64,000 bases of DNA from a virus (taxonomy: Duplodnaviria > Caudoviricetes): the IMG/VR virus record IMGVR_UViG_3300012979_000041, positions 6,377 through 70,376 of that record; one strand, 5' to 3'. How positions within the stretch are numbered: the first letter of the stretch is position 1; each line of letters begins with the position of its first letter. Below, piece by piece: positions 3,378 to 26,207 of the stretch. Made by a program: the position numbers and the translations under genes. The notes under the pieces are model-generated. The model had not been told where the DNA came from. It ran no database searches and saw only the letters and a list, made by a program, of their open reading frames with translations.

Positions 3378-4979
3378 ATGGCTACTTATGTGAAGGCTTA
3401 TAATGGCTATATTGCTGACGTTCCTCATTTCTGGTTCAAACGTTGCGATGGCCGCATCTTCTATTTCGACGAGTAGACCAATGCCTCTGTGACTCCTCAG
3501 GTGAACTACACCGAGGTTAACGCTAAACACAACTGGCGCTTTGCAATGTGAATTGCATCGAATAACCTATCTAAACGGAGAAACTCCCAGATTCGTACAT
3601 AGAGCTTCTGGGACAACTTACCGTGCTAAAGCGTAAGGAGTATTTTTTTATGGAAAGAAGTTATACAGTATACATGCATGTTAATAAGATTAACGGCAAA
3701 GTATATGTTGGGATTACTGTTTTGCTGCCGGAAATTCGCTGGGGAAAGAATGGATCAAACTATAAACAGTCTCCGTATTTCTGGTATGCAATACAAAAAT
3801 ATGAATGGGAAAACTTCGACCATGTCATATTAGCGCAAGGATAGACAAAAGAAAATGCCGCCAGCGAAGAGCGTCGATTGATTGCTGAAAAGAAAGCAAA
3901 AGATCCTCGTTTTGGTTACAATCTTGCATCTGGCGGATATAGTCAGCCTGGAGAAGACAATCCTTTTTTCGGACACACTCATTCTGAAGAGGTTAAAAAA
4001 GCTATTTCGGAAAGAAACAGACACAGAGTTTGGACTGAAGAGTCCAAACAGAAATGTCGAGAGAAATAGCTTGGAGAGAAAAGCCCTCGAGCAAAAGCTG
4101 TGTTATGTGTTGAAACTGGCGAAATATACCAAACAATAAAGATCGCAGCTGAAGCTATGAATGTGACACCCGGTAAAATATGCGATGTTCTTAAAGGAAG
4201 ACATAAGACTTGCGCCGGCTATCATTGGCAATATTCTGAACGTAAAGCCTAACGACTATCCGGGAACGGAGTAGAATCAAGTGATTCGAAAAGATAGGCA
4301 TCTCTTTGAGATGATGATATAGTCTGATCTGCGTAGCAATACGCAGCTGCGTTAATTCGCGGGTAGAGAGTAACGATCTCTACTGAACGTATTGGGTTGG
4401 TCTATGTACCCCGTGGCTTATCTGCCCGGTCAATCCACTTTTGAGATGAACATTACTTCTGGTAAGTTCTATCCCGACCTGTTCTCCATGGCTAATGCCA
4501 CTGATTTCGAGAGCAATGATACTTTCCTGACTCCCTTCACCGAGACTCTGGACGTGGCCGCCGATAAGTCTCTGACTCTGTCTCATGAGCCTGCTGGCGA
4601 TATCTTCATCGAGGGTCTGTCTGCTGAAGACTACACCGTTGAAGGTTCCAAGGTGACTTTCACCGAGGATCAGACTGGTCCTATCCAGGTGACCTACGAG
4701 TATACCCAGACTGCTCACGAGGCTCTGATCGACAACAAGAGCGCTGCCATTGGCGAGGCTATTATGGTGTATCCTGTGTATGGCTCCGGCGACGACTGCA
4801 CTCAGTCTGCCATCATCGGCGAAGTCGTGATGAAGGTGTTCAAGGCTCGCGTTACCGGTCAGCCTGGTCTGAACGGCAGCTACAAGTCTGCTTCTACTTT
4901 CGATCTGACTCTGAGCGCTATGGACGCTAAGCGTTCCGACGGTGCTACTTATTCTATCGCTTACGTGAAGAAGGCTTAA
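3378..4979 (+). CDS. Major tail (tube) protein, spliced: exon1 3378-3524, exon2 4395-4979 (1 TAG)
   Basis: Joining gives ...YTEVNA|[23 protein letters not shown]...; capsid-like codon bias; TAG 3474-3476 (FYFDE*TNAS). Confidence 0.8.
3525..4394 (+). mobile_element. Group I self-splicing intron (phage IA2-like) in the tail tube gene, carrying a homing endonuclease
   Basis: Exon ends in U, intron ends in G; core elements AACGACTATC (~4251) and GATGATATAGTCT (~4313); removal restores the frame. Confidence 0.85.
3650..4252 (+). CDS. Intron-encoded GIY-YIG homing endonuclease with C-terminal NUMOD-type DNA-binding repeats (2 TAG)
   Basis: [18 protein letters not shown]...QKYEWENF...GYNLASGG; TAG 3842 (AQG*TKENA) and 4067; ends TAA inside the intron core. 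Confidence 0.85.
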
Positions 4980-5049
4980 TCGAGATTTTGTTTCTTGTTT
5001 AAAAGGTTTATAAAAAAGGTTGTGGCAAGAGACGCGTAATACGCATTTA

Positions 5050-5083
5050 GGGCTACAGCTGTAATGGTTGTAGCCCTTTTTTA
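5050..5083 (+). terminator. Intrinsic terminator after tail tube gene
   Basis: GGGCTACA...TGTAGCCC stem followed by TTTTTT. Confidence 0.8.
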
Positions 5084-5106
5084 TTCGCTTGAAAGGACGA
5101 TAAGGT

Positions 5107-5577
5107 ATGAAGGAAAGATAGGTTCCAGCTGAAGCCTTGCCGAGCAAAGCTATCCCGGAAAACGAGAAGCCGGCAAAGGCAGTACCTTCGAAAACAAAGA
5201 AACCGAAGGAAGTTCCCAGTATTGAAAAAGAAGAAAATTGCATAATGCTTGGAGATCGTAAAGTAGAAATCAAGGCGACAAAATTAAAGTATTTCAGAAA
5301 CCGTACGGCATCGATCTATAGCGCATAGAAGATCGTGCCGCTATCTGAGTTTCTAGCCTATGATAAAGGCGTATTTGACCAAGAAAGAGATTCCGACCAA
5401 ATTCTATTCGATTTCTTAGTCGCGGTATTCGATAACAGCGCATAGGTTCGTACGTATTATGATGATATGACTTCAGAGGATATTGAAAAGATTCTCGAGA
5501 TATTTGGCCGGGTTAATCATATAAACGAAAAAGAAGAGACTGCAAGAAAAAACAGGGAAGCCCAGGCGAAGCCTTAA
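5107..5577 (+). CDS. Tail assembly chaperone (lambda G-like; 3 TAG)
   Basis: ATG 5107 to TAA 5575-5577 through three TAGs; between tail tube and TMP; slippery heptamer near its end. Confidence 0.7.
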
Positions 5578-5924
5578 GTCTTGACGAAGCTGCTGCGGCT
5601 GTCGCGGCTCACCTGGGTGAAGTTGACGAAGAAAAAATCGACAATATGGCCTACGTATGGTTTAACCTCGTGCTTGAAGCGATAGGCAAGAAACTGAATT
5701 ATGATTCTATTTCTAACCTGTATGGCAACAGTTTTGCCAAAGATGCTTCAAAGATCATTCAGGCGGCTAATCCGCTGGTCAAAGGTAGCGTTGCTAAAGG
5801 CGGGACAGTGGCCGATCTTGTTGGTACGGTTAAAATCATCGACGCTTCTCAGGCTCCCGATGCTGCTAAGAAGGCCGTTGAAGATAGTCTGGGAGATATT
5901 TCGTGGGCAGAAGGATTATTCTAA
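5547..5924 (+). CDS. -1 frameshift extension of the tail assembly chaperone (GT-like)
   Basis: A AAA AAC at 5547-5553 in register with 0-frame codons AAA AAC; -1 frame open from there to TAA 5922-5924 (...LDEAAAAVAAHLGEVDEEKIDNMAYVWFN...). Confidence 0.7.
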   Translation, partial: KKQGSPGEALSLDEAAAAVAAHLGEVDEEKIDNMAYVWFNLVLEAIGKKLNYDSISNLYGNSFAKDASKIIQAANPLVKGSVAKGGTVADLVGTVKIIDASQAPDAAKKAVEDSLGDISWAEGLF

Positions 5925-5936
5925 GGAGATGATATT

Positions 5937-6263
5937 ATGTGTAAAGAAACAAAGAACGAAGAAGTATACTATGGTATCTATGACTTATAGATAGAACCAT
6001 TGGTTGAAATTGGCGTAGACACTATTTCGTTAGACGCCTAGGCCGAGGAAGAATACGAAAGAGAAGAACGTGAGGCAATCCAGAGTGAAACTTACGTTCC
6101 TGTCGAAAAGCCTCGGACGTTATTTATGGGCGTTGTTCCAGAGTGCGATGCGCAATGGGAAATAGTACCTCATGAAGAGGATATTCCTAAAAGTAAAAAT
6201 TGGTTTAGTAGGATAATTGATCGTATCCGTAGATTTATTAGAGGAATAGGAGAGAAGAAATAA
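5937..6263 (+). CDS. Hypothetical protein (2 TAG; missed by ORF track)
   Basis: GGAG RBS, ATG 5937, acidic protein ending TAA that overlaps the next ATG. Confidence 0.55.
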
Positions 6264-6700
6264 TGCTATATTCAGAGTATTTTGCAAAAGCTTATGAGGT
6301 TGCAATTTCCGAAATTGAAAGAACCGGTATTGTCTTTTAGGAACCTCATTATAGAATGTGGCTCACAGAAGAGAAGTAGACTCCAGATCAAGTGACAGAC
6401 TTTCCGATTACCTGGGAAGATGTTCGCGAAATTCTGGAACTCGAGGTAAAGAAAATTAACGCTTTACATGACAACACGCGAGCTGTGGTTGATTGGCTCT
6501 ACCTTGCCATTAACGAAGTTATTGAGCCGACAATGGTTGATCAGGAAAATGAATTACTTAAGAATGTTACAGAGTATATGAAGCTAAATGCTTCTTTAAA
6601 AGATCGCGAGAAAAACATCGAAAAGAAAGAGAAAGCGTTGGAAGACAAGAGCAATATTGTTCAGCTTACTCCGGGCATGAACTTTTCGAAAAGAAAGTAA
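6263..6700 (+). CDS. Hypothetical protein with C-terminal coiled coil (2 TAG)
   Basis: TAATG-coupled start, in frame with ORF 6392..6700, ends TAA. Confidence 0.6.
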
Positions 6701-6747
6701 AAAAAGTATGTTCCAATGTGAATACAATTAACGGTCGGATGGATGAC

Positions 6748-6771
6748 AAAAAGGGCCCGTTTGGGCCCTTT
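6748..6771 (-). terminator. Intrinsic terminator immediately after the helicase TAG
   Basis: AAAGGGCCC-GTTT-GGGCCCTTT perfect hairpin; U-tract on the - strand. Confidence 0.75.
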
Positions 6772-6773
6772 AA

Positions 6774-8621
6774 CTAACATCCAGACATGAAATTGACGAT
6801 TTCTTGGTTTACTTTAATGTCTTCAAGTGTCAATGGTTTCTCAAGGTATAACCCTTCGTAAGATGAGCAACGTGATAGTGCAACGTATGTCTGTCCCGCT
6901 GCGAAAGCATTTCCGTCGTATTTCAGAATAACTTTATCATAAGTTTTTCCTTGGGATTTGTGAATTGTTATTGCATATGCTGGCTTGACAGGGAACTGGC
7001 TGAATTGTCCGACCTCAACTTTGATTAGTTTGTTTTCTTTGCTATCAAATTCATATTCATATTTTTTCCATGTTTCTTTATCAACCGTATGTGTTGTTCC
7101 TTTTATCGTCACCGCAATAGAATTAGGATTGAGCGCGGCAATGATACCTATGGTTCCGTTGACCCAAAGTTTATTCGGTTCGTTTCGCAACATCATTACT
7201 TGCGCTCCGACTTTTAAACGAAGGAACTCGTCTGTAGGATACTGAGAAGGCTTGCCGAAATTACCGATAATAGTAGCACGATAAGTAAACTGTTCGCCAG
7301 GTAGTTTTTGCATCTGTTCTTTATTAATCTTATCAGCGCTTGCATTTTTTTCAGTTAGATACAAAATGCTTTCTTTCGAGGGAGCAGGCAAACAACGTTT
7401 GTTGATTTCTTTTAAGACGTATTCATTCACGTCTCCGATTCTAATTCTATTTAGAAGATCAATAAACATTGGATTATTTTGCCTGAAGACTTGCGTCAAG
7501 TTGATTGTTTTAAATGGGTTGGTTTTAAAAAGTTTGGTCCCGAAGAAAAAGAACGAAGAATATCTGCTAAGTAAGAATTCATGTACGGAAGTGTCTTTTC
7601 CCACTATCGGAGGAAGTTGATACAAGTCTCCGAATACAATAATTTGACAACCTCCAAACGGTAAGTTGTTTTCATGAACTTGTTTTAAGATAACATCGAT
7701 GGCATCAAAAACGTCTACGCGTACCATAGATATTTCATCGATAATAATGGTGTCGACATTTTTTAAACTTTCTTTTTTCTTGTCTGACACTTCTATTTCG
7801 TCAACATCTATGACTTCGTTTTTCAAACCGAAGAAAGAATGAATCGTCGCACCTTTTACATTGAGCGCGGCAATCCCAGTAGGAGCAAGCACGGCGACGT
7901 TCTTTTTTGTGGTATTTACAAAGTGACGAAGAATCACTGATTTACCTGTGCCGGCTTTACCTGTGACAAAGAAGTTATCAGAACTTGACTCCATAGCATT
8001 AATTGCAGCGGCTTGCTCTTTTGAAAGAGTTATTCCTTCCGCTGTAGTTTCTAACGCCGGATTATTGCTTGAAACAATCATATTGTCTGAAAGATTTGAA
8101 ATGTCGTGTAAAACAGAGTTGAATGCTATGTCTGCTTTTAATAAAGACGATTGCCTATTTTGTATCTCAGACAGTTTCTCGTTTTGGTTTTTTAAAGAAA
8201 GCACCGTTGCTTCCAATTGAGCGTTCTTGGTTTCAAGAGCCTTGATGCGATTGAACACTTCTTTGGCATTTTTGTTTTGTTCTTCGATTTTTGCACGCAA
8301 AGTTTCTTGCTGAAAGTTAGATATAAAATCCTTGATTTTTATGGCATTTAAAAAAGAAACAATAAACCATGGAGAATTTTTGTTTTCCGAAACGATGAAA
8401 CATCCTCGTATGATTTTTTCTTTCGAGAACAACGAAGTTTTTGCGATTTGCTCTTCGAATTCTATACCGATAAAATTTACATCGTAAGACGAAGAGAACA
8501 CTAGAGAATTATTAAAACTAACGGAAATTATGTCGTGTGAAATGTGCATAATGCAATCTGTTAGGTTGTTATCTTTATTATACCACCGTATTGGAACGTT
8601 AAGCACGATATTGTTATCCAT
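6774..8621 (-). CDS. PIF1/RecD-like SF1B helicase with N-terminal domain and coiled coil (moron; no internal TAG, ends in TAG)
   Basis: GKAGTGKS Walker A, IIIDEISMV, FGDLYQLPP, AYAITIHKSQG, GQTYVALSR motifs; AAAGGAG RBS; antisense to the structural operon. Confidence 0.9.
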   Translation of the reverse strand: MDNNIVLNVPIRWYNKDNNLTDCIMHISHDIISVSFNNSLVFSSSYDVNFIGIEFEEQIAKTSLFSKEKIIRGCFIVSENKNSPWFIVSFLNAIKIKDFISNFQQETLRAKIEEQNKNAKEVFNRIKALETKNAQLEATVLSLKNQNEKLSEIQNRQSSLLKADIAFNSVLHDISNLSDNMIVSSNNPALETTAEGITLSKEQAAAINAMESSSDNFFVTGKAGTGKSVILRHFVNTTKKNVAVLAPTGIAALNVKGATIHSFFGLKNEVIDVDEIEVSDKKKESLKNVDTIIIDEISMVRVDVFDAIDVILKQVHENNLPFGGCQIIVFGDLYQLPPIVGKDTSVHEFLLSRYSSFFFFGTKLFKTNPFKTINLTQVFRQNNPMFIDLLNRIRIGDVNEYVLKEINKRCLPAPSKESILYLTEKNASADKINKEQMQKLPGEQFTYRATIIGNFGKPSQYPTDEFLRLKVGAQVMMLRNEPNKLWVNGTIGIIAALNPNSIAVTIKGTTHTVDKETWKKYEYEFDSKENKLIKVEVGQFSQFPVKPAYAITIHKSQGKTYDKVILKYDGNAFAAGQTYVALSRCSSYEGLYLEKPLTLEDIKVNQEIVNFMSGC

Positions 8622-8731
8622 ATTACTGCTCCTTTTGCAAGTATTAGGAAACTAAAAATGGTGCGTTCAATTAGTCAAATAAAATGATACCCATGTTCGA
8701 AGTAAAAGTCAATAAAAAAGGAGGAAATACA

Positions 8732-11700
8732 GTGTCAGAATCCATTGATTTAAAATAGAATTTTGATATTTCAAGTTTTCTGGGTCAACTTTCAAAAGCC
8801 GAGGAGCAAGTGTCCTCCTTGAAAGCTGAGTTAGAAGAAACTCCAGGTACTCCAAAAGCGTTAAACGCCGGTTTAGACAGAACTTAGCATACGATAAATA
8901 TGCTAGAGAAGAAGGCGCATGCTGTAAACAAGTTATCTGACGGTAGAAAAGATGCTGTTGTAGGAGATTTAATGGCTGGGCTTGAGGAAATAAATATGTC
9001 AACTCAGTTGTTTTCTGAAGGCGGAAAGTTTTCTACAAGCTTAGCGAAACAAATGTTTGATGGTTTTCCAGAGGCAGTAAAAAAGGAACTCAGTAGCAAC
9101 ACTAGAGAAATCGAAAAGCTGATTCGTTCTTCTTTGGGATCGATTAAGTCATTCGGCGTCTCTAATATGGCTCGAGACATTTTGATGACCGATCGAGCTG
9201 GGGAAATTTTCGGAAGAAGATTCAAAAAAACATCGGGTGATCAATTTAAGAAATATATTGAAATGTAGCTTCCTCATGCTCTTCCTGCTTATATGATGGA
9301 AGAATATCAGATGTTGAGCAAAGGAACTGTTTCGAAAATTAACGCAAGCATTCATCCGCATGAAATAATTCCTAAAGCCTTCCAAACGGCATTCAAGAAC
9401 AAAAACTACACATCTTCAGGTTCTTCTAATGGTTTATTCATGCAAGAAGAACAAAGGAAGATGCTGCGCAACTTAATCTCTGAAAACGATGCTGCAATGC
9501 GTGCTGCGGAAAAAGTTGACGGAATGATCCGTAGAAGCACCGCTGGCCGAGCGCAATTAAACCGAAACATCACACAGGCTCAATATGACCAGTTTAAATC
9601 GAACATGTGGAAAGATTGGGTTCTTAGGGCATCAGGTTCTCAATCAAACAGAGTCGATCTTTTTGCAGACAATCTGTCTGCTTCCGACGAGAGAAAACTT
9701 CTTTCACGTATGACCGGCAGCTCCGCTGGTCGAGTTTTGTCTGCTATGAACAGTCTTGATCCCTTTGAAACTGCTGCGGCGTGGGCCACGAGCACAAAGC
9801 AGAAAGGTTATGAGACTTTAAAAAAAGAAGCTAGAAGAGAACTAGAGCAATATGAGATTGCGAGATTTCGATTTGGAGATGTTTTTTCCGGTAAAGAAAA
9901 ATGGAGACCCGTTGCTCTGTCTGAAAGCCAGAACACTAGATTGCTTGGCTTGAGCGGCATGCATAATCAGTTCACGGATAAAGTTGCTGTACTAGATCTT
10001 GCTGGATATGATAAAGAAAATAAAGAACACCAGAAACTATTGGAGCAATTGAGCAGCGGAAAAGAAGTGTCTTTGCCAGGTTCGAATAAGAAATATATTG
10101 CTCAGAATCTTCATGGTACAGGACGTAACACAACGTTCAGATTGATCGAAGCTGAAGCGTACAAGGCAGTAAGAGACAGAGAAAAAGCGTGGCTCGAGCA
10201 ACAAGGCTTTGCTTTTTCTGGAAATAATTACTGGAATAACCTTGTTGGAGAAGATTATGTATTTGAAAGCGAAGAAGCTTTACGTAAACATTATGACGCT
10301 ACTGGAAAAGGTTGGACACCTGGTTATCAAGTGAGGTCACAATAGAAAGATAAGAACTTTGGTATTGTTGATTTTTCAAAGATAAGCGACGCTGGACAGA
10401 AAGCTAAATAGGCAGACGGACTTGCTTGGATGGCTAAAGGTATTTTGCCTGAAGGATCTATACAGGCAAGAATCGGTATCTCGGGCAAGGGTGTTGTTAA
10501 TGAAATGCCGTTTAAAACAATGGGAGATTGGGCAGTTAACGCAGGATTGATTAAACCTGGTGAAAGGTTTATTCTACCTGGGCCTCGCGGAGATGTTGAT
10601 GTTACAGATTAGAATGGCGTTTCAGACGTGTCTCAGGTGAAAAATATTTCTGCATATGGTAACTTTAAATCTGGCGAAGAAATGAACAAAGCTTTTACTG
10701 CTTTGATGCAAAGATATGGTATTTCTACTGTAACGTCTTTCGGCAACGCAGAAAGCAAAGTTGATAGTTTGGGCCATCAAGCAATGATGTTCATGAAATT
10801 GTCTCCTGAAATTGTGGAAAAACAGATGGCCGCTGCTGATCGCAGACTTAAGATGTTGGATACTGAAGCTGGAATTAGAGAATTCATACTGAGCGATCCC
10901 AACGATTACCTTGCGAAAATGCTTAGAGAAGGCAAAATCTAGCCAACAGACAATGTTATTCAAAGCAGAGTTCAGAAAGAAAAAGATAGTATCATCTCTC
11001 GTTTGGCGAGCGGTGAGTGGCTTGATTTCGACGGGAGTGTTTCTGGTTACAACCAAAAAGTAAATAAAACACTGATGACGTCTCTTGTTGAGTTTGGCGG
11101 TGGTTCTAGAGAAGAAAAAATCCAGAAACTCCGTAAGCTCATGAAAGATAAAGGTTTAACAAGAGAATATACAGACGATGAAATAGCTGGAATCTGGGGA
11201 TTAGGCGGAGTTAAAGGTGGCGCTATAGTAGATTTCTTGCGACCAGACGAGGAATTTGTTGCTGTAAACAGAGCACCTAACGGCATTGCACAATTTGTTT
11301 CTGGTAAAAATTATGCGAAACTAGCACGCGATGTCTATAAAAAGTTTGGAATTTCAACAAATGGCGTGTTCTTGTCTGAAGAAGATATGTTGACTTTAGG
11401 CGACGCGGACTTCGACGGCGACGGCGTTAAAGTTATGTATGGAGATACCGCACATGAAATGGGGCGGGCTTCGGATTTATACAACGAGATTATTAACAAA
11501 CTTGCCATTACTTCAAATGCTCAGCATGTGAAAGATAATAACGGTGTTTTAGGAAGTGTCACGGATACGCCTGAACAAAGAAGGCGTGCAGCTGAAGACA
11601 GTATTGCGGCTGTAATGGCAATGGGATTGACGTCTTCTGCAGGCGAAAAAGCGACCATGTTTGATTTAACAGACCCAAGAAACAGAGATATGTTGATTGC

Positions 11701-14700
11701 GGCTGTACAGTCAAATCCTGCATATTCCATTGCTACCGTTTTAGGCAAAAGAGGCGGACATGTTGAACTGACGAAAGAAATGTGGGCTGCTTCAAGGCTG
11801 GGTAAAACATGGCAAAAGTAGCCTAGCAAATATTCCAATCTGTTCAACGTAACCGGAAAAGATGATATAGATATTCCAGATGAAGAAGATATCTACGTTT
11901 CGGATGAAGGAATAAAAGTTAACCTGGCTCAATTAAGAGAAATGGAGATTGATAAAATCAATCTTCCTTCAGCGTATCAAGATTCAACTTAGGTTGGACT
12001 AAGAATGGCTTCGCAACTCGGCAGCTCTCCAGAGGGAGAAAAACGAAGACGAGCTGTTTTAGAAGCCCTTGACCGAGTTATTGGATACGGTGGCGTCGGA
12101 GATAAATCGAAAGCTCTTTTGCAGAATCTGCGATTCCTGAAATTAGGAATGGCTACAGGAGACAGAGGTTCCACCACTGGGGAAGAAGACGATGTTTTAG
12201 CTGCACAAATATCGGAAGCGTATAAGGAAGTCACAGATTTAGCAAAAAGTAAGATTATTGGCGGTGGCAAGGTTAAACTTGATGATGGAACGGAAAAGCA
12301 GTACGGAGAATATTTGTCTGAACTTCAGAAACAAGCCGGAATAGATGTTGCAAAAGCTTACTTGTATTCTTATGGCGCAACTATAAACAGAATAAAATCT
12401 GTATACGGAGAAGAAGAGGGCTCTAAGATTGCTGCAGACCTTGTCCAACACGAAGGTGTTGATATGCCGAATGCAATCGTGTCTTCTGCTGAACAGCTTC
12501 TTAATCCGCAGAAGACGATTGCTCAACAAGAGAATGCTGTTGCAACTAGCTTTAAAGGTAAAAAACCTAAGTCTCGGAAAATTAAACAAGCACAAAGAAA
12601 CGCGAAAAAAGTAGAAGAGGCAACGCAAGTTGTAGAAGAAAAGATAGACGACAGTATTTCGATTTTTGAACAATACGAAAAAATAAAAACATTCGAAGGT
12701 TCACTGCAGGCAGAAAAAGAACTTTCGGAGTATATTCGCCAGGTTTCAGGTAAATGGTATAAGACGCACGCAAAGGTTGATGAAGATCCTGAAAAATCTT
12801 TCTATGCGCTGTCTTTGTATGAGTAGCGAAAAGCTCAAAATGAATACGATATTGCTTCAACTCATGGTGATTCTACCGTATTTGGCAGCGGAACAGCAAC
12901 AGGAGAAAACCTGTTTGCTTCATAGCAAGGAATGGAAGCTAATTATTTCTTAGCTACCAGAGCCCATCTTACCCAAAGCGGCGAAGGTGCTTTGGAATCA
13001 TTGCGGAAAAGTGTCCAAGGCGTTGGGACCGAATTCGATAAGCAATAGGCTACTCTTGAAAAGTGGAGTTCCGAAGTTGAATCTCTTCAAAAACAGCTTG
13101 ACGCGTTCAAACAATCTCGAGAACAATATTCTTCGAAAGCGAATTCCGATCTTGAGGCAGATGCATAGGCAATTAGCGAACAAGAAAAGAGAATTGCCGA
13201 AGCTAGAAAGCTTGAAGAACGGGGAAGAGAAAATCTGTTAAGAAGTAACGATTTGCGGTTTTCAGAGAACATCGATCAATTTATGTATCAGCTTACTGGA
13301 AAAACTGCGGACAGACAAACAAAGATTAGCAGAGAAGTAGAATCAAGAAAAATGCAACTCGAAAGAGAACGGGCCGCGATGGAAGAAGCTCACAATAAGA
13401 AGTTATTATCTGATGAAGCATACGAAAAACTGCTTCCTAAATTCGATGAAGTATCCAAGTATATCGATGAAGAATATAGAAAAAAACTTGAAACTCAGTA
13501 TACAGATAAGATTCATAAAGAAGTGGCTTCTTTCATTCGTCACGGTGACCGCATGGATCTCGCTCATCGTCGCCGTGCAATCGACAACACGATGTACGGA
13601 CGATATCTGGCTCAGACAGAAAACGAGCTTGAGCAAAGACGTCATTACGACGAGATGGGAACTCTGAAGCTCGAAGAACTCAAAAATGCTCAAGCTCCGC
13701 AGACAGAAATAGATAAGCTCACTGAGTCATTAAATCGCAATAAAGAGGCTATGGAAGGTCTTGAAAAAGCTCGCGGCAAGCTTTCTGCTGGTTTCCAAAT
13801 GCTTGATGACGCGGTTACGCGTGTCATTACGAGATAGGGGAAACAGCTTCTGTCTAAAGCAATGAACGAGTTAAAGAGATTTACGATAGAATTCAACACC
13901 AACATGAAAGAAATTCAGACTGTTACGATGAAGTCAGATGAAGAAATGGTTCAAGTCAGAGAAAATGTTCTGAATGATGCAATAAAATATCGTACTTCAG
14001 TGTCTGATGTTTCTACCGTAAAGAAAGCGCTTTATAGACAGGGATAGAGCGAAAGCGAAGTCGACAGTAGAACTGGTAGTATTTTGAAATTCGCAAAAGT
14101 AACTGCAATCAAGACAGAGAATGCTACGAAGATTATCACAACAGCTTTGCAAAACAATCTTGTATCTACAGCTGAAGAAGCTATGGATGCTTTGGTTGCT
14201 CTTGGCGATAGTGCGGCAACAAGTGCCGATCAGATCGGTGATGCTATGCAGAAGTGTGCTGCTGCTGCAAAGGTCGCCGGAGTTTCTTATTCAGAGTTAA
14301 CACCAATGCTTACCGTTATGACCAGCATGACTCAGTTAAGCGGTAAGCAAGTTGGTACTGCTATGAATACCATTTTGTCGAGACTTCATAATGTTACCGC
14401 AAATAAATACACGAAAGAGATTAACGGCGAAGTTACTGCGTAGAACGATGTTGAATCTGCTCTGGGAACAATAGGTGTTTCTTTGCGAGATGAAAATGGC
14501 GGCTGGAGAAAATCTACTGACGTATAGGTCGACATTGCCGAAAGATGGCAATCTATGACAGACATTCAGAAATCTCTTGTGTCAACTTCCGTTGCCGGCA
14601 CCAGACAGGGAAATATGTTCCAAACATTAATGGAAGGCATGTCCGAAGATGGAGGAGAAACGTTTAGAAAATATCTCGAGCTAGCAGAAGAAAGTGAAGG

Positions 14701-17700
14701 AATTACAGATGGAAAATACGAAATTGCCGTAACGTCTATTGCTTCTGCTCTTGAAACTTTGACGTCTAATTTCGATCGGTTAGTTTCTAGTTTTGAATCT
14801 TCAGGCATTGCGACAAGCGTGCTAGATTTTGTTTCGGATGTCTTGAGCGGACTATCTGATTTAAATGAAAATGTTCCTGCGTTAGGAAGATCATTAACAA
14901 TGTTGATTCCTATTCTTGCTACCGTTGCCGGATTAGCAGTTTTGATCAAGAGCAAAGGAAGTACAATATCTCTTCTTGCAGGCATTGGCGTTGCTGGAAT
15001 AGGCATGTTTGCCGCTTCTCAGATCGGAAAGTTTACGAATGTTTCAACTGCAAATAATGCAGAATACAAACAAAAAGTCGCAGAGCAAAACAGCCAATAT
15101 ATCGCTGAAGTAACAAAACGACAGCAAAGAAGAAAAGAACTCATTGAAGAAACCGTTGCTCTTGGCAAACAATACGATGAATTGGGATCTGCAATGGATT
15201 CTACTAGTTCTGAAAAGTTTGAAAAGAATCTAAACACGCTGATTACTTTGTTCCCTGAATTGAAAGATAATATTTCGGATGCAACAAGCGTTCTTTCACA
15301 ATGGAAAACGATAACGGACGAAGCCGCTGTTTCGGTAAATAATTTAACTAAAGAAGAAATTGCACATGCGGAAGTGAAAGCCAAACTGGATGCAAGCACA
15401 AATTTCGACGATTATGTGCAGCAACAGCTTGATCAGGCTAATGCAGATTCAATTGGCATTTCTTATGATTCGCTAATTGGTTTGGCAAATGCGCAGCCAA
15501 TCGGTCGCGAAACAAACATGTATTCGTTTGATCATTATCGCACGTTGTATGAGGCAGGCTTGCTTGGTTCTGATACTGCTCAAGAACAAGCGATAAGAGA
15601 CTTGTTTGATTATCTTTACAAAGGACAAGAATTCACTAATGCAACTTCTGAAGCTATCTTCTCTGGATATGCAAGCAATTGGTTTAATTGGTTTGGCGAA
15701 CCGGAAATCTATACCAACGGTAGATATAACGAACTTTTTGCTAGAAAATATTTTGAAGCCGAAGTTGTGCCAACACCAAAACAAGCAAGAATCACAAAAT
15801 TTAATCCTTTTAGTTCTGAAAGAAATATCGCAGATTTCCTTTTGTCTGATTCGTATGATTATTCCGATTCTGTTATTCAATAGCTTTCACTGCTTTATGA
15901 TCTGTACGCTCACGATATTGGACTAGACAGTATTTATAGCAATAAAGATGACTTCATTAAAAACATACAGTCAAATGATAATCGTCTAAAGAATTTTGAC
16001 AACGCTAATGTGTTGAGGAATTTATCCGAACAAATGTATTAGGCAGTTAATGGACAGCATGAAGGATTAAATATGCTGTATGAAGAACAGCAAAAAGCTA
16101 TCGATCTTGTGTATGGAGACAGTGTTTCTCACTACATTAGTGAATATGTGCCTGATTACCGCTTAAATCACGCAGATGATGAATTATTAGCTCTTGCCGT
16201 AAGAAAAAAATTTGTTGAATCCATTACAGATCCAGATACAAAAGTTATAGACTGGAGTAAAGTAAACGCTACGGATATGAACGCTGTAATTCCGATTATG
16301 TATGAACAAGTCCTCGAAGAAGGAAAAGAAGGTTATCTCGACATAACAGACTGGCCTTATCATTAGGGTGAAGAAGGTTTTGAATCTTTAGAACAAGCGC
16401 AAACAACGTTATCTGAAAGATACTCTGAAGACAAAGAGGGATATTATGCGGCATTGCGCGAATAGAAAGATAAAAACGAAAATCCTGCGTTTACGCCTGC
16501 CGACTCATAGGCTAAGCAAGCGTATTTAAATTGGGAAGCAAATAACGCTGGATATATTGATCAACTAATCGAGCTTTCGAAATATGCTTCTGATTCGAAC
16601 AACATTACAGAGTTTGTCGACAGAATCCCAGTTGATTTCAACAATCTAATCGGATTGCTTAGTCAGAACGAGACGCTCAATAAAGCGTGGGCTGCCACGC
16701 AAGCTGGCACAATGGATTTCTCGTTATTTAGAAAAATTCTTCAAAGTCAGATCGCTGGTTCCAATTTGTTAGATCACGAAGATTATAAAAATATGCTTCC
16801 TTCTTTCTTTGGAGAAGGGTTTATTTCGTCTTTATCAGAAGGAACTTACGATACTACTTCTACTGAAAACGTTGGTACTCTGATGACAGCAATGAGTAAT
16901 CCTGCGATGCTCGAACAGCTTGAGGCTCTGAAAAGTGTGTTCCCAGGTATCACTGAAGTTATCAATGCTATGACTTCTGGTGTTGAAATGAACGCTGAAG
17001 CACAGCAAAAACTAGCAAATATCATCATGTCAGAGACAGTTCGTGCGTCTAAGAAGTTCGGAGACAGTACCGAAGAAATTGCTGACAATATGGATCAGTG
17101 GGCTGGGGATGCGAAGTCTGTTGCATCCGCAATGAGAGAAATGAACTCTGCTCTCAGCAAAGCCGCGAATAATCAATTCTTTAGAGATAAGTATTTTAAA
17201 GGCGACAGAGATGAAGAGACGATGAGTGCCATTGCTCAGATGACTGGATTCGACGAGGATACAATCAAAGAGCAGCCAGAGATGGTAAAGAAAGCCCTCG
17301 AAGCAGCGCTAGAAGAAGACTATACTCTCATCGAAGAAGAGCTTAATGCTTTCAGTGAAAACATTAGTTCCAATCTTGATTATGATCAGCTTGGTATTCA
17401 ACTGCCTCAAATCGAAGGCGAAGCTCAGCCAGTCGACTTATCAACAGCTATCAATGCTATGACAGGCGATGCCGCAGCGCAACTTCAGCAATTAGCTGAT
17501 TACCTTGCTCAAATGGGCGTCGATGCTCATCTGGCGATCTCTTCTGACGGCGAGAAGATGAGTGCAAAAATTGTTGTTGATAGCATCAAAGGCAGAAAAG
17601 GCACAGCGAGTAGAGGCGGTGGCGGTGGTGGTGGTTCTAAGAAATCTGCAGCTGAGACTCTTATGGAAGACCTTTCCAAAAAGCAGGCTTCAAGAGAACA

Positions 17701-19396
17701 CATCATTAAAATGATCCAGTATCAAGAGACGAAGTATGAGAACCGTGGAGAGTTTGGCAACCTGAATAACATGATTGCTTTGGAAAATGATGCGCAAAAA
17801 GAATACAGATCAACACTTGAAGGCAATCTTGATTCTCTGAAAAAACAATAGGCTCAAACCACAAAGAACTCTGACGATTGGTATAGCCTGAGAGAAGAGA
17901 TTCTTAAGACCGAGGAAGCTATCGAAGAAGTAGATATCGCTATCGAGGAAAACATCGAACGCATGGAAGAAAATGAAGAAGCAATCCGACAGACTCGCAT
18001 TTCTCTGGAAGAGATGGTAGAAGCAGAGATTAACGCCAGAATCCAGAAAGAACGAGACATGCTTGATGGCTCTGTTTCCATGCAAGACACTATCACCGAA
18101 GCAATTCGACAGCGCTATCAGGACGAGTGGGATCTCGTAAAGCGAGACATTGAAAAGAAAAAAGAAGCTCTTGAAGAAGAGAAGAACCTGATTGATGAAA
18201 GATTGAACGCTCGTAAAGAGGCCGAAGACGAAGCGGAGAAATACGCACAACTGTCTGAATATAAGAGACAGCTTGCAATGATCTCTATGGACTCTACGAG
18301 AACCAAGGATGCTGCCGATCTGAGAAAGAAGATCGCAGACATCGAGAAGGATATTGCTTGGGATATTGCAGAGGACGAGGCAGACGCTACAAAGCAGCAG
18401 ATTGACGATCAGATCGCGGCTTACGATGAGTATGTCACTGTTGGCGATGAGGACATGCAGGCGTTCTTAGAGAACGCGAATAATTTCGCTGACGAAATCA
18501 AGAACGTTATGGGCTTGTCTCATGACGATCTGATGAATTGGCTGAAGCTCAATGTTCAGGAATACGCTAACTCTTTAGACGATGCTAAAAAGCAGATGCT
18601 TCAGACCTGGGACGATCTGTATAAACAGATGTACGGAATTACCGATACATACTGGGAGCAGATTAACCAGATTCTATCTTCTAAAGATAACTTCTTAACC
18701 TATATGATGCAGAGCGACGAATACATCAATGCTTCCGAAACAGATAAAGCCTCCATGCTTTACGAGTGGTCTGAAGCTTACGACGATTATGTTGCCGCAC
18801 TTAAAACAGGCGCTGAATACAGCCACGAAGATGTAAGCGTAGACAATATTGGATTGAGCGCTGCGCCTTCTAAAACACCAAGCAGCACACCGACAACCGA
18901 AAACAAGTCGACAACAATAGTCGGGCAAGCCGCTAACTGGTTGAAAGAAACAGCCAGTAACGTTGTGTCTTATTTCAATAGCGGTAAGGCTGCTGAAGAT
19001 GTCAACACTACTGTGAAAAACGGCGTCAATGCGCTTTCTAATCTGGTTAAGAAACTGAATATTCCAGGCTTTAGTTCAGGCGGCGACGTAGACTATACGG
19101 GCTTAGCAATGGTTCACGGATCTCCAAGTAGACCGGAAGCTTTCTTAAGCGCAGACGACAGAGTGTTAGTAAGAAACATGATTGATGCTATGGGATATGT
19201 TCGGTATGTCCCGAAGAGATTTGACTTCGATGTTGATAGCGGCAAGAACGCACAGATCGAAGAAGTCAATGTGGTGATCAACCAGGCTCAACTAAATAAT
19301 GATGAAGATATCGAGATCGTTGCGCAGAAAGTTGGTCAAGCGTTTGTCAAAGAACTTTCTAAATCTGGAGTACACACATCTAAATACTCATTCTAA
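8732..19396 (+). CDS. Giant tail tape measure protein (3554 aa) with N-terminal two-barrel RNA polymerase domain (~21 TAG)
   Basis: AAGGAGG RBS + GTG; 13 ORF-track fragments share one frame and every internal break is TAG; TP901-type TMP core ~13860-14700; C-terminal FSSGG..GLAMVHG..PEAFL; RNAP motifs at 10463, 11267 and 11402. Confidence 0.85.
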
Positions 19397-19402
19397 TTTA
19401 AG

Positions 19403-19431
19403 GAGGAAGGGGAGTAACGCCCCCTTCCTTC
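19403..19431 (+). terminator. Hairpin after the TMP gene
   Basis: GGAAGGGG...CCCCTTCC stem-loop. Confidence 0.5.
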
Positions 19432-19449
19432 GATTCTTATTTTCAGGAG

Positions 19450-20526
19450 GTGAAGGATATGGTTGGAGGTTTTTCCTTCTGCGGCGTTGACGTTGCGGAG
19501 ATTGGATTGCAATATGCTCCTGACAATGCTAATACATATGTTTACAAGCCAACGCAGACGACAATTCAAGAAGAAGCGTTTGACGGCCACGATGGTGGAT
19601 TCTATTATGGAGCAACAAGAAAACCAAAAGATTTCACGCTCCGCTGCTATTATGAATCGCAAAACATCAATGATGGCATTATGGCGAAAATACATTCGCT
19701 ATTCAGAATTGGCAAAACAGGCCAATAGGTTTTTGAACGAAATCCTTGGTTATACTATAACGCTACGGTTATCAGCGTCGATACAAGCCAAATGCTGAAT
19801 TTTTTGAACGGTTGTGTTGTTGTAAAAATGAGAGCATATTATCCTTTCGCGAGAACGGATTTAACCTATATAGATACCTTATCTTTAAATGATTACTCTT
19901 AGAGAAACAATTCTGCTTTGTTGGAAGTGGACGGATTGATGCCCGAGGTCGAGATCACGAAGAATAGCAATCTAACTAATCAAACGTCGTTTTTGCTATA
20001 CAATGCCGGAACGGAAAGAGCCACGGTTGCGATTCAGATCGCCGGCTCAGCCAAAGGTGTTACAATAGCTAATTCTACTACGAATCAAAGTTGCAAATTC
20101 GTCGGCTTATCGACTGGAGAAAACCAGTATGTAATGTCCGATGGTATCAACGGTAAAACTGTTTTAGTGGATAAGGCAGCAAATAAAACAGAATTAGCTT
20201 TCAGATTTCACGATTATGGGTTTATTGATCTTGAACCAGCCTTTCCGATCGCAAGAGATTTCGGAATTTCTTACGAAGAAGGTAGCAATAAGCTAACAAC
20301 AAATTTTGAAATGTATGAGGATTATCAAGGGAAATATATCCTCGTTAGAAACGAATGGCATAAAATTATTGAAGCGAGCGGTAATAAGATTACGTAGGCT
20401 TCCGCATTGGACGCCAACGGAAACGAAAACACAGTTATCGCAACGATGAACGAACTTACAGTGACTCCAGATACTACAATGGATCTGTCTTTGCTTAAGT
20501 TTGTTTACAAACATACATTTTCTTAA
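19450..20526 (+). CDS. Distal tail (Dit)-like protein (3 TAG)
   Basis: Directly after TMP; KTGQ*VFERNPWLYYNA resembles the Dit G-L-x-F..P..YY motif; ends TAA. Confidence 0.7.
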
Positions 20527-20540
20527 GGATGTGAGAAAAC

Positions 20541-23500
20541 GTGATACGAAACCGCAGAAATCTAGTATTGGATATCTTCGATTATAGCGGAAACAAAGTC
20601 TGCCCGCTATACGATGCTACTTCCGATACTTCCGGTCAGGCTGTCGATGTTTTTGTCACAACAGAGAGAAATGGCTGGAGAGAACTTTCGTTCACGATTC
20701 CATCTAAATGCTCAACAGAAAACGGGGAAGAAGAGAATTTTAGATAGAAATACCTAATTGCAGATTATAGAATTCGTCTTATTGATGACGATGGGACGGA
20801 TTGGTTTTTAATCTCTGAACCTAAAGTTACCCACAGTGCTTTTTCAAAAAACGTTCAGGTAACAGCTGGGCATATTTCTCAATTGTTGAAAACAAAGAAC
20901 CTTGGACTGGAATTTACTGACAAAGCCGGCAACAACATCGGAACGGCAGAGGAACTTCTTACAACGGTGTAGGAAGGTACTGGTTGGTCGGTTGGTGACG
21001 TTTCTGTTTTTTATGAGAAGGATGGTAAAACCGAAAAGAAACGCACTTTAAAAGCGTCGGCAAAGACGGGATCTTTCAAGTTGATTTCCAAAATTTGCGA
21101 TCTCTTTGAAGCAAAGCCTGTTTATCATGGAGAAGGAAGAACCGTCGATATTGTCCCGATTAACCCGTTTTCGAAACCTGACGATGATTCGATGCCAGAT
21201 ATTTCGAAAGCAGACGGTGTTGTTGAACTTCATTACGGTAAAAACGTAAAAAGCAACGCAAGAAAACTAAACACAGAAAACTTGATTACGAAACTCTATG
21301 CTTACGGTTCCTATGGTGACGATGTATCTGGATATTGCGGCATCGATGAAATAGAATATAGAGTTGCGAATATCACACTTACCAACGCGGTTGCAAAGAA
21401 CCATACATACTACTTTTCTGTTTTAGATGAAGCCGGCATAGAAGTGACATATTGTTTTGTTAGTACAGATGATCTAAGCAGAGGCACTGTATTGAAATTC
21501 TCAATGTTGGACTATGCATCTATGATGTATTTGTGGAATGATGGACTGCAGAAAGCATACAGAGTTACTTCTGAAATCAGCGGCATTGAACTTCCTTGCT
21601 CTGTAGAATATTCGAATGAGAGAAATTATTTCTCATTTATTATGAACTTTGATTACTACAATAAAGTAGGTTAGCTTACGGACGAGGCTATTCAAGCGAT
21701 CGCTGAATATCAAGTTAATGGTCAAGTTTTGAAGAAAAATATTCTCGATAAAACAACAGAGATGAATGACAGTCAGCTTGTATTAAGTGAAACAATCGGT
21801 AATGTTGATTTTTGCAAACTGAATGTGACAAGCACTGGATTTGAAGATTCATATCGTACGATCACTATCTCTGGAAACCCTGACGATGTTGGTGTTATTT
21901 ATAGAACCGACTATGGCGTTCTGAAAAAAGATAGGTTCGAATGGCATATTTCGAAAGGAATTAAGCCGACTGGTGAGTCCTTAAACGAAGAAGCGTCTGT
22001 TATGTATGTGGTTCACAATACCAGCCCAGTAACGTGGGAGAAAGTATATTTAAAAGACATTGTCAACAACGAAGATAATATTGTTATTACTCTCTGGGCT
22101 GAAGAACATCAACCCATTAGTGTGAACGATAGATTTTATTTGTTCGCAATGAACAACGTTAACGGATACTTCGGAGCATATGAAACAGCAGACGAATCTT
22201 GCAGAATCACGCTAGAAAATGCAGTGAAATAGGTAACAACCAATCATCCAGTATATTTCAGTACGCTCGCTCCTATTGTTTCTGAAGCAGAACTGAATGG
22301 ATATGGGTGGTGGGTAAAGTATTATGAAAACTCTTTGTCTTCTGAATTGTATTTCTGCTATTCTGCGGCGGGGGACAATGGTTGGAATAGGGTTTATTGT
22401 TCAAATACCGCACCTGTTGTAAACAACGGAACGTACTGGTTCAATTGGGAAACAGCAACATAGCATTTCTGCATCAACAATGTTTGGAATAAGGTTGTCA
22501 TTTCCGAAGAGAAACCTGCGCATGATGGCGACTACAGGTTGTATTTCAACACGAAGTTAGTAGAATCGTTTAGCCCCGTTTATAACGCTATGCTTACAAG
22601 AGACAAGTATTATAAAGGCCAATACGATACGTATACCGTTTCGTTGACAAAAACAGTTTCTGCTGGCAATTATTATCTTGCTGATAAGTACGGAACTTAT
22701 TTCCTGTTTACCACAAACAGACAGCTTAATAGTGGAGATAGCGTTGTATATAACACTACAGAAGGTCACGTTGTTCAAAAAGCGTCTGGCGTTGAAACGA
22801 TTCTCGAAGCGAAAGCATATCGTTTCGATAATGTGAAATACCATGCTGCTAATGTTATACCTACGGAGCTGATTTCTTCTGGTACGCTTGATTCTTCTGG
22901 TGTAGAAATTGAAAACGCCGGATACAATCGTACTGGATTTATTCCGATTTATCCAGGAGAATATACGATATCAAATGCTTCGTCTTTAATCGTGCAAAGC
23001 TATTCAAAAGGTAACCAGCTTATATCAAGCATGATGATTCAGAATAGCTTTACTGTTGGGGAAAACACTGCATACATTAGAATCACCGGTTCTGTAAACG
23101 ACTTGAATGATAAAACCATCGTTCGTCATTTATATCAGGGTAACTCTGTAATCGCAGATAAGACTACGTATGTTTACATTGGCAAGAACGTTGGCGGGGG
23201 AGAGCTTAAAGGTCTTGTTCCTCTAATGGTTAAATTCGCCGAATACGCTGATTAGACTTATGAAGTTCGAAAAGCAGCTGTAGATGCCGCACAAAAAGAA
23301 TTTAGAACGCTTGAGTGCGATATGATCGACAAGCTGGGAGATATTTACCGAGAAGGATATTGGCAGACAGAAGAGTACGTTGAGGGAGACGAAAGCAAGC
23401 TATACGATGATGCTTTGGAAAACCTGAAAGAGTTGGCGAAGCCAGACGCTTCATATACTGTCTCTTTCCTTGATCTTTACGGCTCTGCGCCTTAGTCTGA

Positions 23501-26207
23501 ACAGGAAGAAACGGAAGCTGTGATGTGGCCTGATCTGTCTATTATGTCTGCTGCACATCTTGTTGATCCAGATATTGATATCAATCTATGGGCATACTTT
23601 GACAAGATCGCGAAATGTTATGACCAGCCGCAAAAAACAACTATAACAATCAACACAAACCTGACAACGATGGGGCAACATTCGTTTACTGATGTTCTGA
23701 CTCATATTGCCGAAGTCGCTGGAGAAGTGAAAGGCAAAGAAACTTTGTATTCGAGAGCTTCAGCGATTACAAGCAGCGGGCAGATGGCCGCAGAACGATT
23801 AGAAGGTAAAATTGATGCGAACAAGTTGCGCATAACTGGCGGCTCGTCCACTTGGTATACCGATAGTCGCGGCAACCAGGTGTTTGAATCTTCCGATGGG
23901 TTGTCTGCGATGACGTTGACCGGTAATGGTTTTGCTATCGCTAATTCGAAGAATATCTGGGGCGAATGGAATTGGAGAACGTTTGGCACTGGCGAAGGTT
24001 TTACTGCTGATGAAATCATTGCCGGCTATCTTTCTGCTGAGCGTATTGAGGCTGGTACGATTACAACAGATCATTTGGCTAGTACGGTTGGTAATGAATT
24101 GAACATTTCGAGCAACAAAGCTTAGAATCTGTTTGCGACTATTGACGGCAAGAAACCTGCAGGATCTGTGTAGACGAACGGTTCAATTATTGAAATTGCT
24201 ACAGACCATGTGAACATCGGTTCTTCTGGCGAAATCAATATGACAGGCTCAAATCTCGATTTAACCGGAAGCGGAAGTATCAACGTTAGCGGCCAAAGTG
24301 CTGTGAACATCGCTTCAGACGGAAAGGTTGACATCAATGGCGGCACAATCGATGTGAGATCGAATGGCAAAATCAATCTTTCTGGCGGTACATTATCGGT
24401 GACCGCTAATGGTGTTATTGAAGTTGTCTCTGGTTCTGCGATCAAGATCGGAACAGGCACTCTTAAAACTGCTTTAGATAATAAATATTCTATCTTTTCT
24501 GGTGTGGATATTGGGGAGAGCGGCGTTACTGTCAGCGGTAAAACGATTAGTTAGCTTACTGCTTCCGGCGTGGCTGGAGTTATTACGCTTGGCTCCGATC
24601 AGAATAAACTGACTTCTGCCGGCGTGTTGAGTCTTGCTGGTGGCAACATTCTTCTTGATGGGCCAAACAACACGGCTACTATTGGCAACGGTGGTGGTAC
24701 GGTTAATATTGGTACAGCAGGTAACGGAACGATTAACATCGGAACAGGCGGTACAGCAACTATCAATCTTGCTACTTATAACATGAAGAGCAGCACGAAA
24801 TCTGTTGCGTATGATACGACATATTCCGTGGGAGGCACCGCATCTACTGCCAATAGCACTAATACGATCACTTATACGAAGACAGACGATGACGGTACGA
24901 CAAGTGCAACATCTTTTACGATTACCGCACAATATAAGAGTGCAACAATTACTTCAAATGCTAACCCGAGCATAACAAACGGTAAGTTGCTGCAGCTTAT
25001 GTACCAGACAAAAGGTTTAAACATGTATGCTGACGTATCGAATAACAGAACTATATTGGCTCCAAGCGTTGCAGACGGTAACTTACTGGGTTGGAACGTT
25101 ATTAGTGCTGTGAACATCGGCGCTACGAACATGAGTGCTGCAACGATTTGTGCTGACAATATGTATCTTAACGGCATCGCTGTTGCAGATCAGAAATGGA
25201 CTATAGATACAATAGCTCATGTTTTGAATAATAACGACGTTATTCCGTCGATCAAATCTAGAGCAGATAGCGCATATTGGGGAGCCTATCGTAAGCCTAC
25301 GCTCATTTTGACCGAGTCTAGCGGAACGTATTCGCTGACTGTGAAGACTGCTGGAGGCGATTCGAATACCGTAAATTTTAATTCGGCTGCCAGCGGATCT
25401 TTGATATTCACTGGTAGCGGAACGTCAATTATGGCTCAGTTGATGAAAAAAGGCTATACAAATCCTTACGACTCTTCTCAGATGTTGATGAAAGCGTCGG
25501 CACATCTTGAGCTAAACGGAATCTACGCAGAATGCCGTTCTGGTTCGGCTGCGGGGGGCAATCTTATTGCCTCCATCGATTGTACACCTATTTACAATGA
25601 AGGTAAAACAGCAGGTAAAACAGAAGGAGCAAATTCTCTTGTTTTCTATGCAGGAGGATACTCTGAAGTTGCAAATCTTGGCTATGGAGAATCTGTTAGC
25701 ATAACTGCAACAACTACAAGAGGCGACAACACATCTAATGCTACTGGCATTCTTGTAAAGGCTCCGGCTGATAGGTATGCTCAAGGTAAAACAGATGGAG
25801 CAAACTCCCTTGTGTTTTATGCTGGTGGATATTCTGGAGTTGCAGATCTTGGTTATGGAGAGTCTGTAAGCGTTACTGCAACGACAACGAGAGGCGATGG
25901 TACGTCAAATGTCGGGAGCATTTTAGTAAAAGCTCCTGCGGATAGATATTCCGAAGGTTACGCCGCTGGATGGGCAGCAGCAAAAGCAAAGATTGGTCTA
26001 AGCGGAAATCAGATTTCTGGCCCCAGCGCTGCTGTGGATAATAGCGAGGTCTTGTATACTGTTACGGCTGGTGGCAGCATTAACTCCATCAAGAATAACG
26101 CTCCGAACTACATGTTTGCAGAAGGCTATGCTCGCGCATATGTCAATGGAGCACAAGTTAACTATCTGTATATCTCCAAGAGTCAATCTTTCAGCCTTGG
26201 GCAATAA
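20541..26207 (+). CDS. Tail tip/hub (Tal-like) protein fused to a central fibre region, 1888 aa (~10 TAG)
   Basis: Seven ORF-track fragments in one frame, broken only at TAG; TTV*EGTGWSVG, ITKLYAYGS and WNWRTFGTGEGFTADEI are typical Firmicute siphophage tail motifs; Gly/Ser/Thr-rich beta-helix-like region; ends TAA. Confidence 0.8.
25629..25960 (+). repeat. Tandem 171-nt (57-aa) duplication within the tail fibre region
   Basis: ANSLVFYAGGYS..LGYGESVS.TATTTRGD.TSN...ILVKAPADRY occurs twice, starting at 25629 and 25800. Confidence 0.9.

Follow-up and report, generated by a model that had tools for sequence, protein, structure and literature searches.

The virus of IMG/VR record IMGVR_UViG_3300012979_000041 (Duplodnaviria; Caudoviricetes) reads the stop codon TAG as an amino acid and carries, in one open reading frame (ORF), a predicted single-subunit RNA polymerase (RNAP) joined to the tape measure protein (TMP) of its tail. 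The record is 70,376 bp long, with a CheckV estimate of 59% completeness, and the window analysed here is the 64,000-nt stretch of its bases 6377–70376; positions below are those of the window unless another contig is named. The gene lies at 8732–19396 on the plus strand (Table 1). Its product has the TMP of SPbeta-like phages in its C-terminal part and, ahead of it, a region with a predicted RNAP fold, with catalytic motifs that are both intact and conserved, and with homology to the polymerase YonO. The same fusion is conserved in a family of giant phage proteins, and a second, free RNAP is encoded elsewhere in the window. Our preferred reading, to which we give a probability of about 0.7, is that an SPbeta-type TMP here carries a YonO-paralogue RNAP that is delivered in the virion and transcribes the first genes, by analogy with gp96 of Thermus phage P23-45 but in a separate lineage.

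An earlier note on this DNA had proposed much of this: a single 3554-aa protein once TAG is read through, with TAG as Leu; its shattering by standard annotation; a TMP in the C-terminal part; an N-terminal two-barrel RNAP of the QDE-1/YonO type, with three motifs, three intact Asp and a fold that structure prediction should recover; and a separate non-virion RNAP, as in P23-45. All of these proposals have held. The fusion itself is borne out by the fold, the motifs, the conservation in the family and published precedent, and the other evidence is given below. The further suggestion of the note, that the injected enzyme bootstraps the change of code, has fared less well and is taken up with the proposed mechanism.

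The fused gene and its product

Under the standard code (translation table 11), the plus strand between 8.7 and 19.4 kb gives only fragments, the longest of 477 aa. When TAG is treated as a residue, the region becomes a single frame (8684–19396) with 23 in-frame TAG codons and no in-frame TAA or TGA within it. The start is the GTG at 8732, which has a ribosome-binding site; the in-frame ATG upstream at 8684 has none. Residues are counted from the GTG (the numbering from ATG 8684 minus 16). Over the whole 70,376-bp record, the residues found in frames of at least 200 aa rise from 12,476 to 21,319 when TAG is a sense codon; the gain with TGA or TAA as sense is much smaller. In recoded phages, genes like this fusion are wholly hidden by standard-code annotation.

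The meaning of TAG was deduced from an alignment with eleven full-length relatives that are called as single giant proteins. In the well-aligned parts, the TAG positions fall in columns of Leu or other hydrophobic residues (L/F/M/I/V), no column favours Gln, and two positions are Leu in 11 of the 11 relatives (examples of TAG codons in the TMP are those at 14045 and 14525). Because of these columns, TAG most likely encodes Leu here. Gln is the usual amber reading in recoded phages, and Leu is unusual. A search for tRNA genes, suppressor tRNAs included, found none in the window or in the whole 70-kb record, to which little weight can be given with the record only 59% complete. Dense recoding is also seen in replication genes and not in late genes alone: the fragment of a DnaE-like polymerase gene at 49755–51836 on the minus strand, with PHP, DNA_pol3_alpha and finger domains, has 16 in-frame TAG codons.

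The C-terminal part is identified as a TMP by the Pfam family PF10145, by eight PHROG TMP families that match the core (residues ~1415–2350), by a hydrophobic hairpin and by its position among tail genes. A tail-chaperone-like ORF lies upstream, and a YomG-like Prophage_tail protein is encoded downstream at 20541–26207. In BLASTP, residues 1711–2091 align with residues 356–713 of SPbeta YomI (E 1e-17). YomI, a TMP of 2,285 aa, has about the length of the stretch behind the polymerase here (~2,300 aa), but it lacks the N-terminal polymerase extension. By this homology, the protein is a YomI-like (SPbeta-type) TMP to which some 1,355 residues have been added at the N-terminus.

The added residues have escaped ordinary sequence searches: Pfam gives no match for residues 1–1400, and sequence searches of the PDB gave no useful match, whether the query was the N-terminal 1,405 aa or a small profile. 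An exhaustive HMMER search with residues 384–1384 found 76 clusters of homologues, 30 of which are giant proteins of 3,699–6,777 aa. The AlphaFold2 model from the family alignment has a predicted local distance difference test score (pLDDT) of 86.4 and a predicted template modelling score (pTM) of 0.81, and it is well ordered over residues 384–1238. It was built on a translation with TAG as Gln, which differs from the Leu version at 7 of 1,001 positions, and the result is unaffected. In Foldseek against the PDB, the top matches are two-barrel RNAPs only: QDE-1 (E 3e-12), RDR2, the non-virion RNAPs of P74-26/P23-45, and gp96 (E 4e-3). The largest subunits of bacterial and eukaryotic RNAPs come next, together with gp66 of crAss-like phage. 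In a viral structure library, the matches are phage proteins annotated as like RNA-dependent RNA polymerases, and P23-45 gp64. With both double-psi beta-barrel domains as its catalytic core, the module is predicted to be a complete single-chain two-barrel RNAP. For the residues ahead of it (1–383), the equivalent part of a standard-code homologue, P0005 (L002:10001–11260), was modelled, with a pLDDT of 73 and only generic helical matches.

The three motifs lie where the earlier note had placed them (Table 1), on strands and loops that are modelled with high confidence, and global superposition on QDE-1, combined with the register of the motifs, suggests that the DxDxD loop would face R580 and K586. 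In every aligned homologue listed, the first motif retains its Q, R and KG, and the DxDxD loop its three Asp; R-(S/A/N)-P is retained in all but two of these. Because they are kept across the aligned homologues, the motifs can be taken as genuine rather than chance resemblances. The same pattern bears on the idea that the module is an inactive polymerase fold, exapted by the tail for a purely structural or plugging role. With three Asp, the Arg/Lys of the second barrel and the RSP invariant or nearly so in homologues down to 25% identity, the pattern is that of a working site, and a dead domain seems to us very improbable.

Table 1. Coordinates of the fusion gene, its parts and the second polymerase gene, in window positions.
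Feature	Position	Strand	Remarks
Whole RNAP–TMP fusion gene	8732–19396	+	3,554 codons/aa; stop (TAA/TGA) only at 19394–19396
Ribosome-binding site AAGGAGG	8717–8723	+	Seven bases ahead of the GTG start; direct sequence reading
N-terminal region, residues 1–383	8732–9880	+	Homologue model: helical part resembling a three-helix bundle, then a small alpha/beta domain
Predicted two-barrel single-subunit RNAP module, residues 384–1238	9881–12445	+	QDE-1 catalytic-core alignment spans 9881–12043
Beta-like barrel motif QARIGISGKG, Q578-x-R580...K586-G587	10463–10492	+	Predicted beta strands, pLDDT >94; basic active-site residues
NRAP (R847, P849)	11267–11278	+	Counterpart of beta-prime NRAP and of YonO RSPH
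DADFDGD, metal-binding D893-x-D895-x-D897 loop of the beta-prime-like barrel	11402–11422	+	Followed by conserved K900
Lys/Glu-rich helical linker between polymerase and TMP core	12446–12973	+	Low confidence, pLDDT 29–60; four TAG codons
TMP core, PHROG TMP families	12974–15781	+	Residues ~1415–2350; homologous to SPbeta YomI
PF10145 PhageMin_Tail	13985–14596	+	E 2.9e-24, 86.5 bits (cut-off 33.2)
Hydrophobic hairpin, two membrane-span-like segments	14888–15025	+	Residues ~2053–2098; typical of TMPs
C-terminal TMP part, coiled-coil-rich	15782–19396	+	Gly run 17615–17635; conserved C-terminal GGxVDYTG...PExFL
Separate RNAP, YonO homologue in two exons	58238–62119	-	E 5e-90 and 1e-28
YonO-like exon 1	60476–62119	-	Ends ...LRSPH; 39% identical to YonO over the exon 1 match
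YonO-like exon 2	58238–59479	-	Begins at the matching position; FDVDGD intact
Candidate group I intron, ~1 kb, between the YonO-like exons		-	Split directly after the RSPH motif
ORF in the insert	59561–60400	-	279 aa, TAG-free; weak DUF2726 match

Relatives of the polymerase and of the fusion

The nearest sequence relative of the module is YonO, a free protein of ~840–950 aa encoded outside the TMP, in what is by tail-module synteny the same phage group. When the family profile was aligned by hhalign to a profile of 20 YonO-type proteins, the match had 96.1% probability (E 3e-9, 431 columns, ~19% identity), with R...KG, RSP and DxDxD (FDxDGD in YonO) in register. A rerun gave 88%, and the control with a reversed profile 0.2%. 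The module thus appears as a distant relative of YonO that forms a separate family within the YonO-like clade. Neurospora QDE-1 and plant RDR2, which lead the structural matches, are eukaryotic, RNA-templated, non-virion enzymes of ~11% identity, and the likeness is in fold only.

The closest parallel in architecture is gp96 of P23-45 (also P74-26, G20c and TSP4; PDB 8H2M/8H2N), which likewise has an N-terminal polymerase and the TMP in one polypeptide. Here sequence homology fails: the family profile gave no significant hhalign match to the single gp96 and gp64 sequences, and BLASTP to gp96 found nothing. Kinship to the Thermus protein is not detectable by sequence, and what the two would have in common is the fold and the architecture. 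A further virion-packaged single-chain two-barrel RNAP within a very large protein is gp66 of the crAss-like phage phi14:2 (PDB 6VR4).

P23-45 has two polymerases, one fused and one free and non-virion, and the layout is the same here. The second RNAP is an orthologue of YonO encoded on the minus strand in two exons, which hold 9 and 3 TAG codons. YonO-like genes are also present on the contigs of both relatives checked (2/2). On the evidence of the profile alignment, the fused module is a distant paralogue of this, the phage's own YonO-type polymerase. As to the insert that splits the second gene, the group I intron model matches it in full length but below threshold (29 bits, E 4e-5, at 59487–59789); an Rfam scan of the window found nothing at gathering thresholds.

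A different use of the module can also be considered. It may be delivered for a main task other than gene expression: it could act as a motor that pulls in the genome, or it could copy single strands as QDE-1 does, to make primers or short RNAs that serve replication or anti-defence. The best structural matches, QDE-1 and RDR2, do copy single-stranded templates, whereas YonO, the nearest relative by sequence, reportedly transcribes genes as a DNA-dependent RNAP. That transcription drives the entry of the genome is established for T7 and has been proposed for N4 and P23-45 (PMC10770324). Against the idea, gp96 transcribes defined pre-early genes from promoters, including the gene of the non-virion RNAP gp64 (PMC10770324), and motor and transcription roles are not exclusive. 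We think it quite unlikely that gene expression is not the main task.

The fusion of polymerase and TMP is conserved among relatives. In 30 of the 76 clusters the module sits at the same place in giant relatives (their residues ~400–1400), and in all of the long homologues collinearity extends over the TMP core and the C-terminal part, whose Gly run and terminal motif are common to the family. Three close relatives (39–42% identity; 4,834, 4,850 and 4,456 aa) are called as single genes and are found in SPbeta-like tail modules with the Pfam families YonB, YomX, YomW, YomU and YomG. In one of these three, L002 (a 103-kb contig), the fusion ORF is unbroken in table 11; in a further relative, L009 (a 110-kb contig from a metagenome-assembled genome labelled uncultured Ruminococcus sp. 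RUG14314), the polymerase–TMP ORF is unbroken in the standard code. Because the relatives whose DNA was read carry the same module unbroken in the standard code, the fusion is taken to be real and no product of recoding. In L009, the first ~370 residues of the extension form a separate ORF (4404–5522), 120 bases ahead of the polymerase–TMP ORF (5643–18329); possible causes are a split of the gene, a small intron and misassembly.

The same relatives speak to the concern that two genes have been wrongly merged. One of the TAG codons at the linker (12779–13166; residues 1365, 1398, 1439 and 1479) could be a genuine stop, in which case the RNAP would be free and the TMP a protein of its own, and the alignment of homologues is in fact poor at these four codons, so that the residue cannot be inferred there. 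The standard-code relatives, however, cross the boundary as one ORF, and no in-frame start codon behind the linker has a ribosome-binding site; at the polymerase/TMP boundary, too, there is no such start from which a TMP-only isoform could arise. The 19 other TAG codons of the frame need read-through in any case, several of them at invariant Leu positions. A true stop in the linker is therefore hard to credit.

The lineage as a whole is one of SPbeta-like phages of the ruminant gut. The best-matching sequencing runs are animal gut and sheep gut metagenomes, with only 0.28–0.35 of the sampled words in common, and no RNA run was among those listed. Contigs from these metagenomes cover the polymerase part at about 95–99% identity and leave 13.7–17.3 kb of the window uncovered, where the lack of cover is not evidence. 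A search of IMG/VR for related loci gave no confirmed relative with the single protein.

Proposed delivery and use of the fused polymerase

The N-terminal part of P23-45 gp96 is an active RNAP and has been detected in virions (Chaban et al., 2024; PMC10770324). TMP–RNAP fusion has been reported only in P23-45, P74-26, G20c and TSP4, where it was termed a "previously unsuspected association"; the survey tables of that study list YonO and other single-subunit families, with no TMP fusion in Firmicute phages (PMC10770324). Our full-text literature search gave no report of a TMP-fused RNAP beyond these four Thermus phages. The present case adds a putative virion RNAP that is related to YonO, fused to a TMP and found in SPbeta-like phages of the ruminant gut, here hidden by amber recoding. 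The same solution would have been reached in another group of phages, with hosts of another phylum, and from a different, YonO-related polymerase lineage. This points to a link between genome entry and first transcription in long-tailed phages that is either convergent or very ancient.

By analogy with gp96, we expect the module to be present in virions, to be injected and to make RNA on DNA, and a course of infection can be proposed on this basis. The fusion protein would be synthesised in the late phase of infection, at which time TAG is decoded as Leu, and would become part of the tail as other TMPs do. In the next infection, the TMP would be expelled into the cell envelope and form a conduit for the DNA, where the attached, ready-made polymerase would meet the entering genome. 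It would transcribe the first (pre-early) genes with no need of the host polymerase, and it might help to pull the DNA into the cell. Later gene classes would then fall to the separate YonO-like enzyme, whose gene contains the candidate intron. This would give SPbeta-like phages a two-polymerase programme, which is absent from the model phage SPbeta. The family also offers many natural variants for the biochemistry of a ~95-kDa enzyme carried by a TMP.

The polymerase might instead be made as part of a TMP precursor and then cleaved off or left out of the particle, to work in the producing cell, for example as an additional polymerase for late genes or as a helper in assembly. Proteolytic processing is common among TMPs, as in lambda gpH and others; a long Lys/Glu-rich linker, modelled at low confidence, separates the polymerase from the TMP core; and the separate first ORF in the relative from the Ruminococcus genome suggests that parts of the extension can uncouple. 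Yet the retention of the link in 30 divergent giant homologues argues that the function depends on it, and a free YonO-type RNAP is already at hand for intracellular work. In P23-45, the corresponding part does travel in the virion (PMC10770324). Removal of the polymerase before delivery is, in our judgement, unlikely. Little speaks for any of the four alternatives considered: cleavage, a role as motor or in priming, a genuine stop at the linker, or an inactive domain.

Delivery in the virion followed by transcription of the first genes has to contend with some points that weigh against it. The closest structures, QDE-1 and RDR2, are RNA-dependent, and the fold does not settle the template preference. 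A globular domain of ~95 kDa cannot fit folded in the lumen of the tail tube, a problem that P23-45 poses as well. Moreover, SPbeta itself does without such a module: tblastn of the module against 50,697 GenBank phage records gave no match, so no cultured phage in GenBank has it.

A wider reading would extend the proposal further. TMP-fused virion polymerases would have arisen at least twice, and a YonO paralogue grafted on an SPbeta-type TMP would have founded a widespread and undescribed lineage of Firmicute phages in the ruminant gut; in the amber-to-Leu recoded phage studied here, the enzyme brought in with the DNA would allow first transcription without the host, for instance of a suppressor tRNA gene at the genome end that enters, and so start the code switch. 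As a whole, this seems to us unlikely. The last step is the bootstrap that the earlier note had put forward, and it is weakened because standard-code relatives have the same fusion, because a polymerase alone cannot decode TAG, and because no suppressor tRNA is found on the 70 kb. It also counts against this step that TAG codons are numerous in the YonO-like gene, with 12, and in the DnaE-like gene, with 16. To judge from the relatives, the fusion is older than the recoding or independent of it.

Other genes of the window

Two genes for tyrosine recombinases are present, at 33037–34041 on the minus strand and at 36059–36979 on the plus strand, the second of them free of TAG. Because SPbeta also carries several integrase-like genes, the two recombinases alone are no proof of a temperate lifestyle. 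Within the region of the tail-tube genes, an ORF for a GIY-YIG/NUMOD homing endonuclease (3623–4252, plus strand) has 2 TAG codons, and L002 has a similar endonuclease at this position. A gene for a PIF1-like helicase (PF05970, E 5e-37), at 6666–8621 on the minus strand, separates the tail-chaperone genes from the TMP gene. In L002, this slot holds other minus-strand genes, one for a leucine-rich repeat protein and one of no recognised kind, and it looks like a site for variable cargo.

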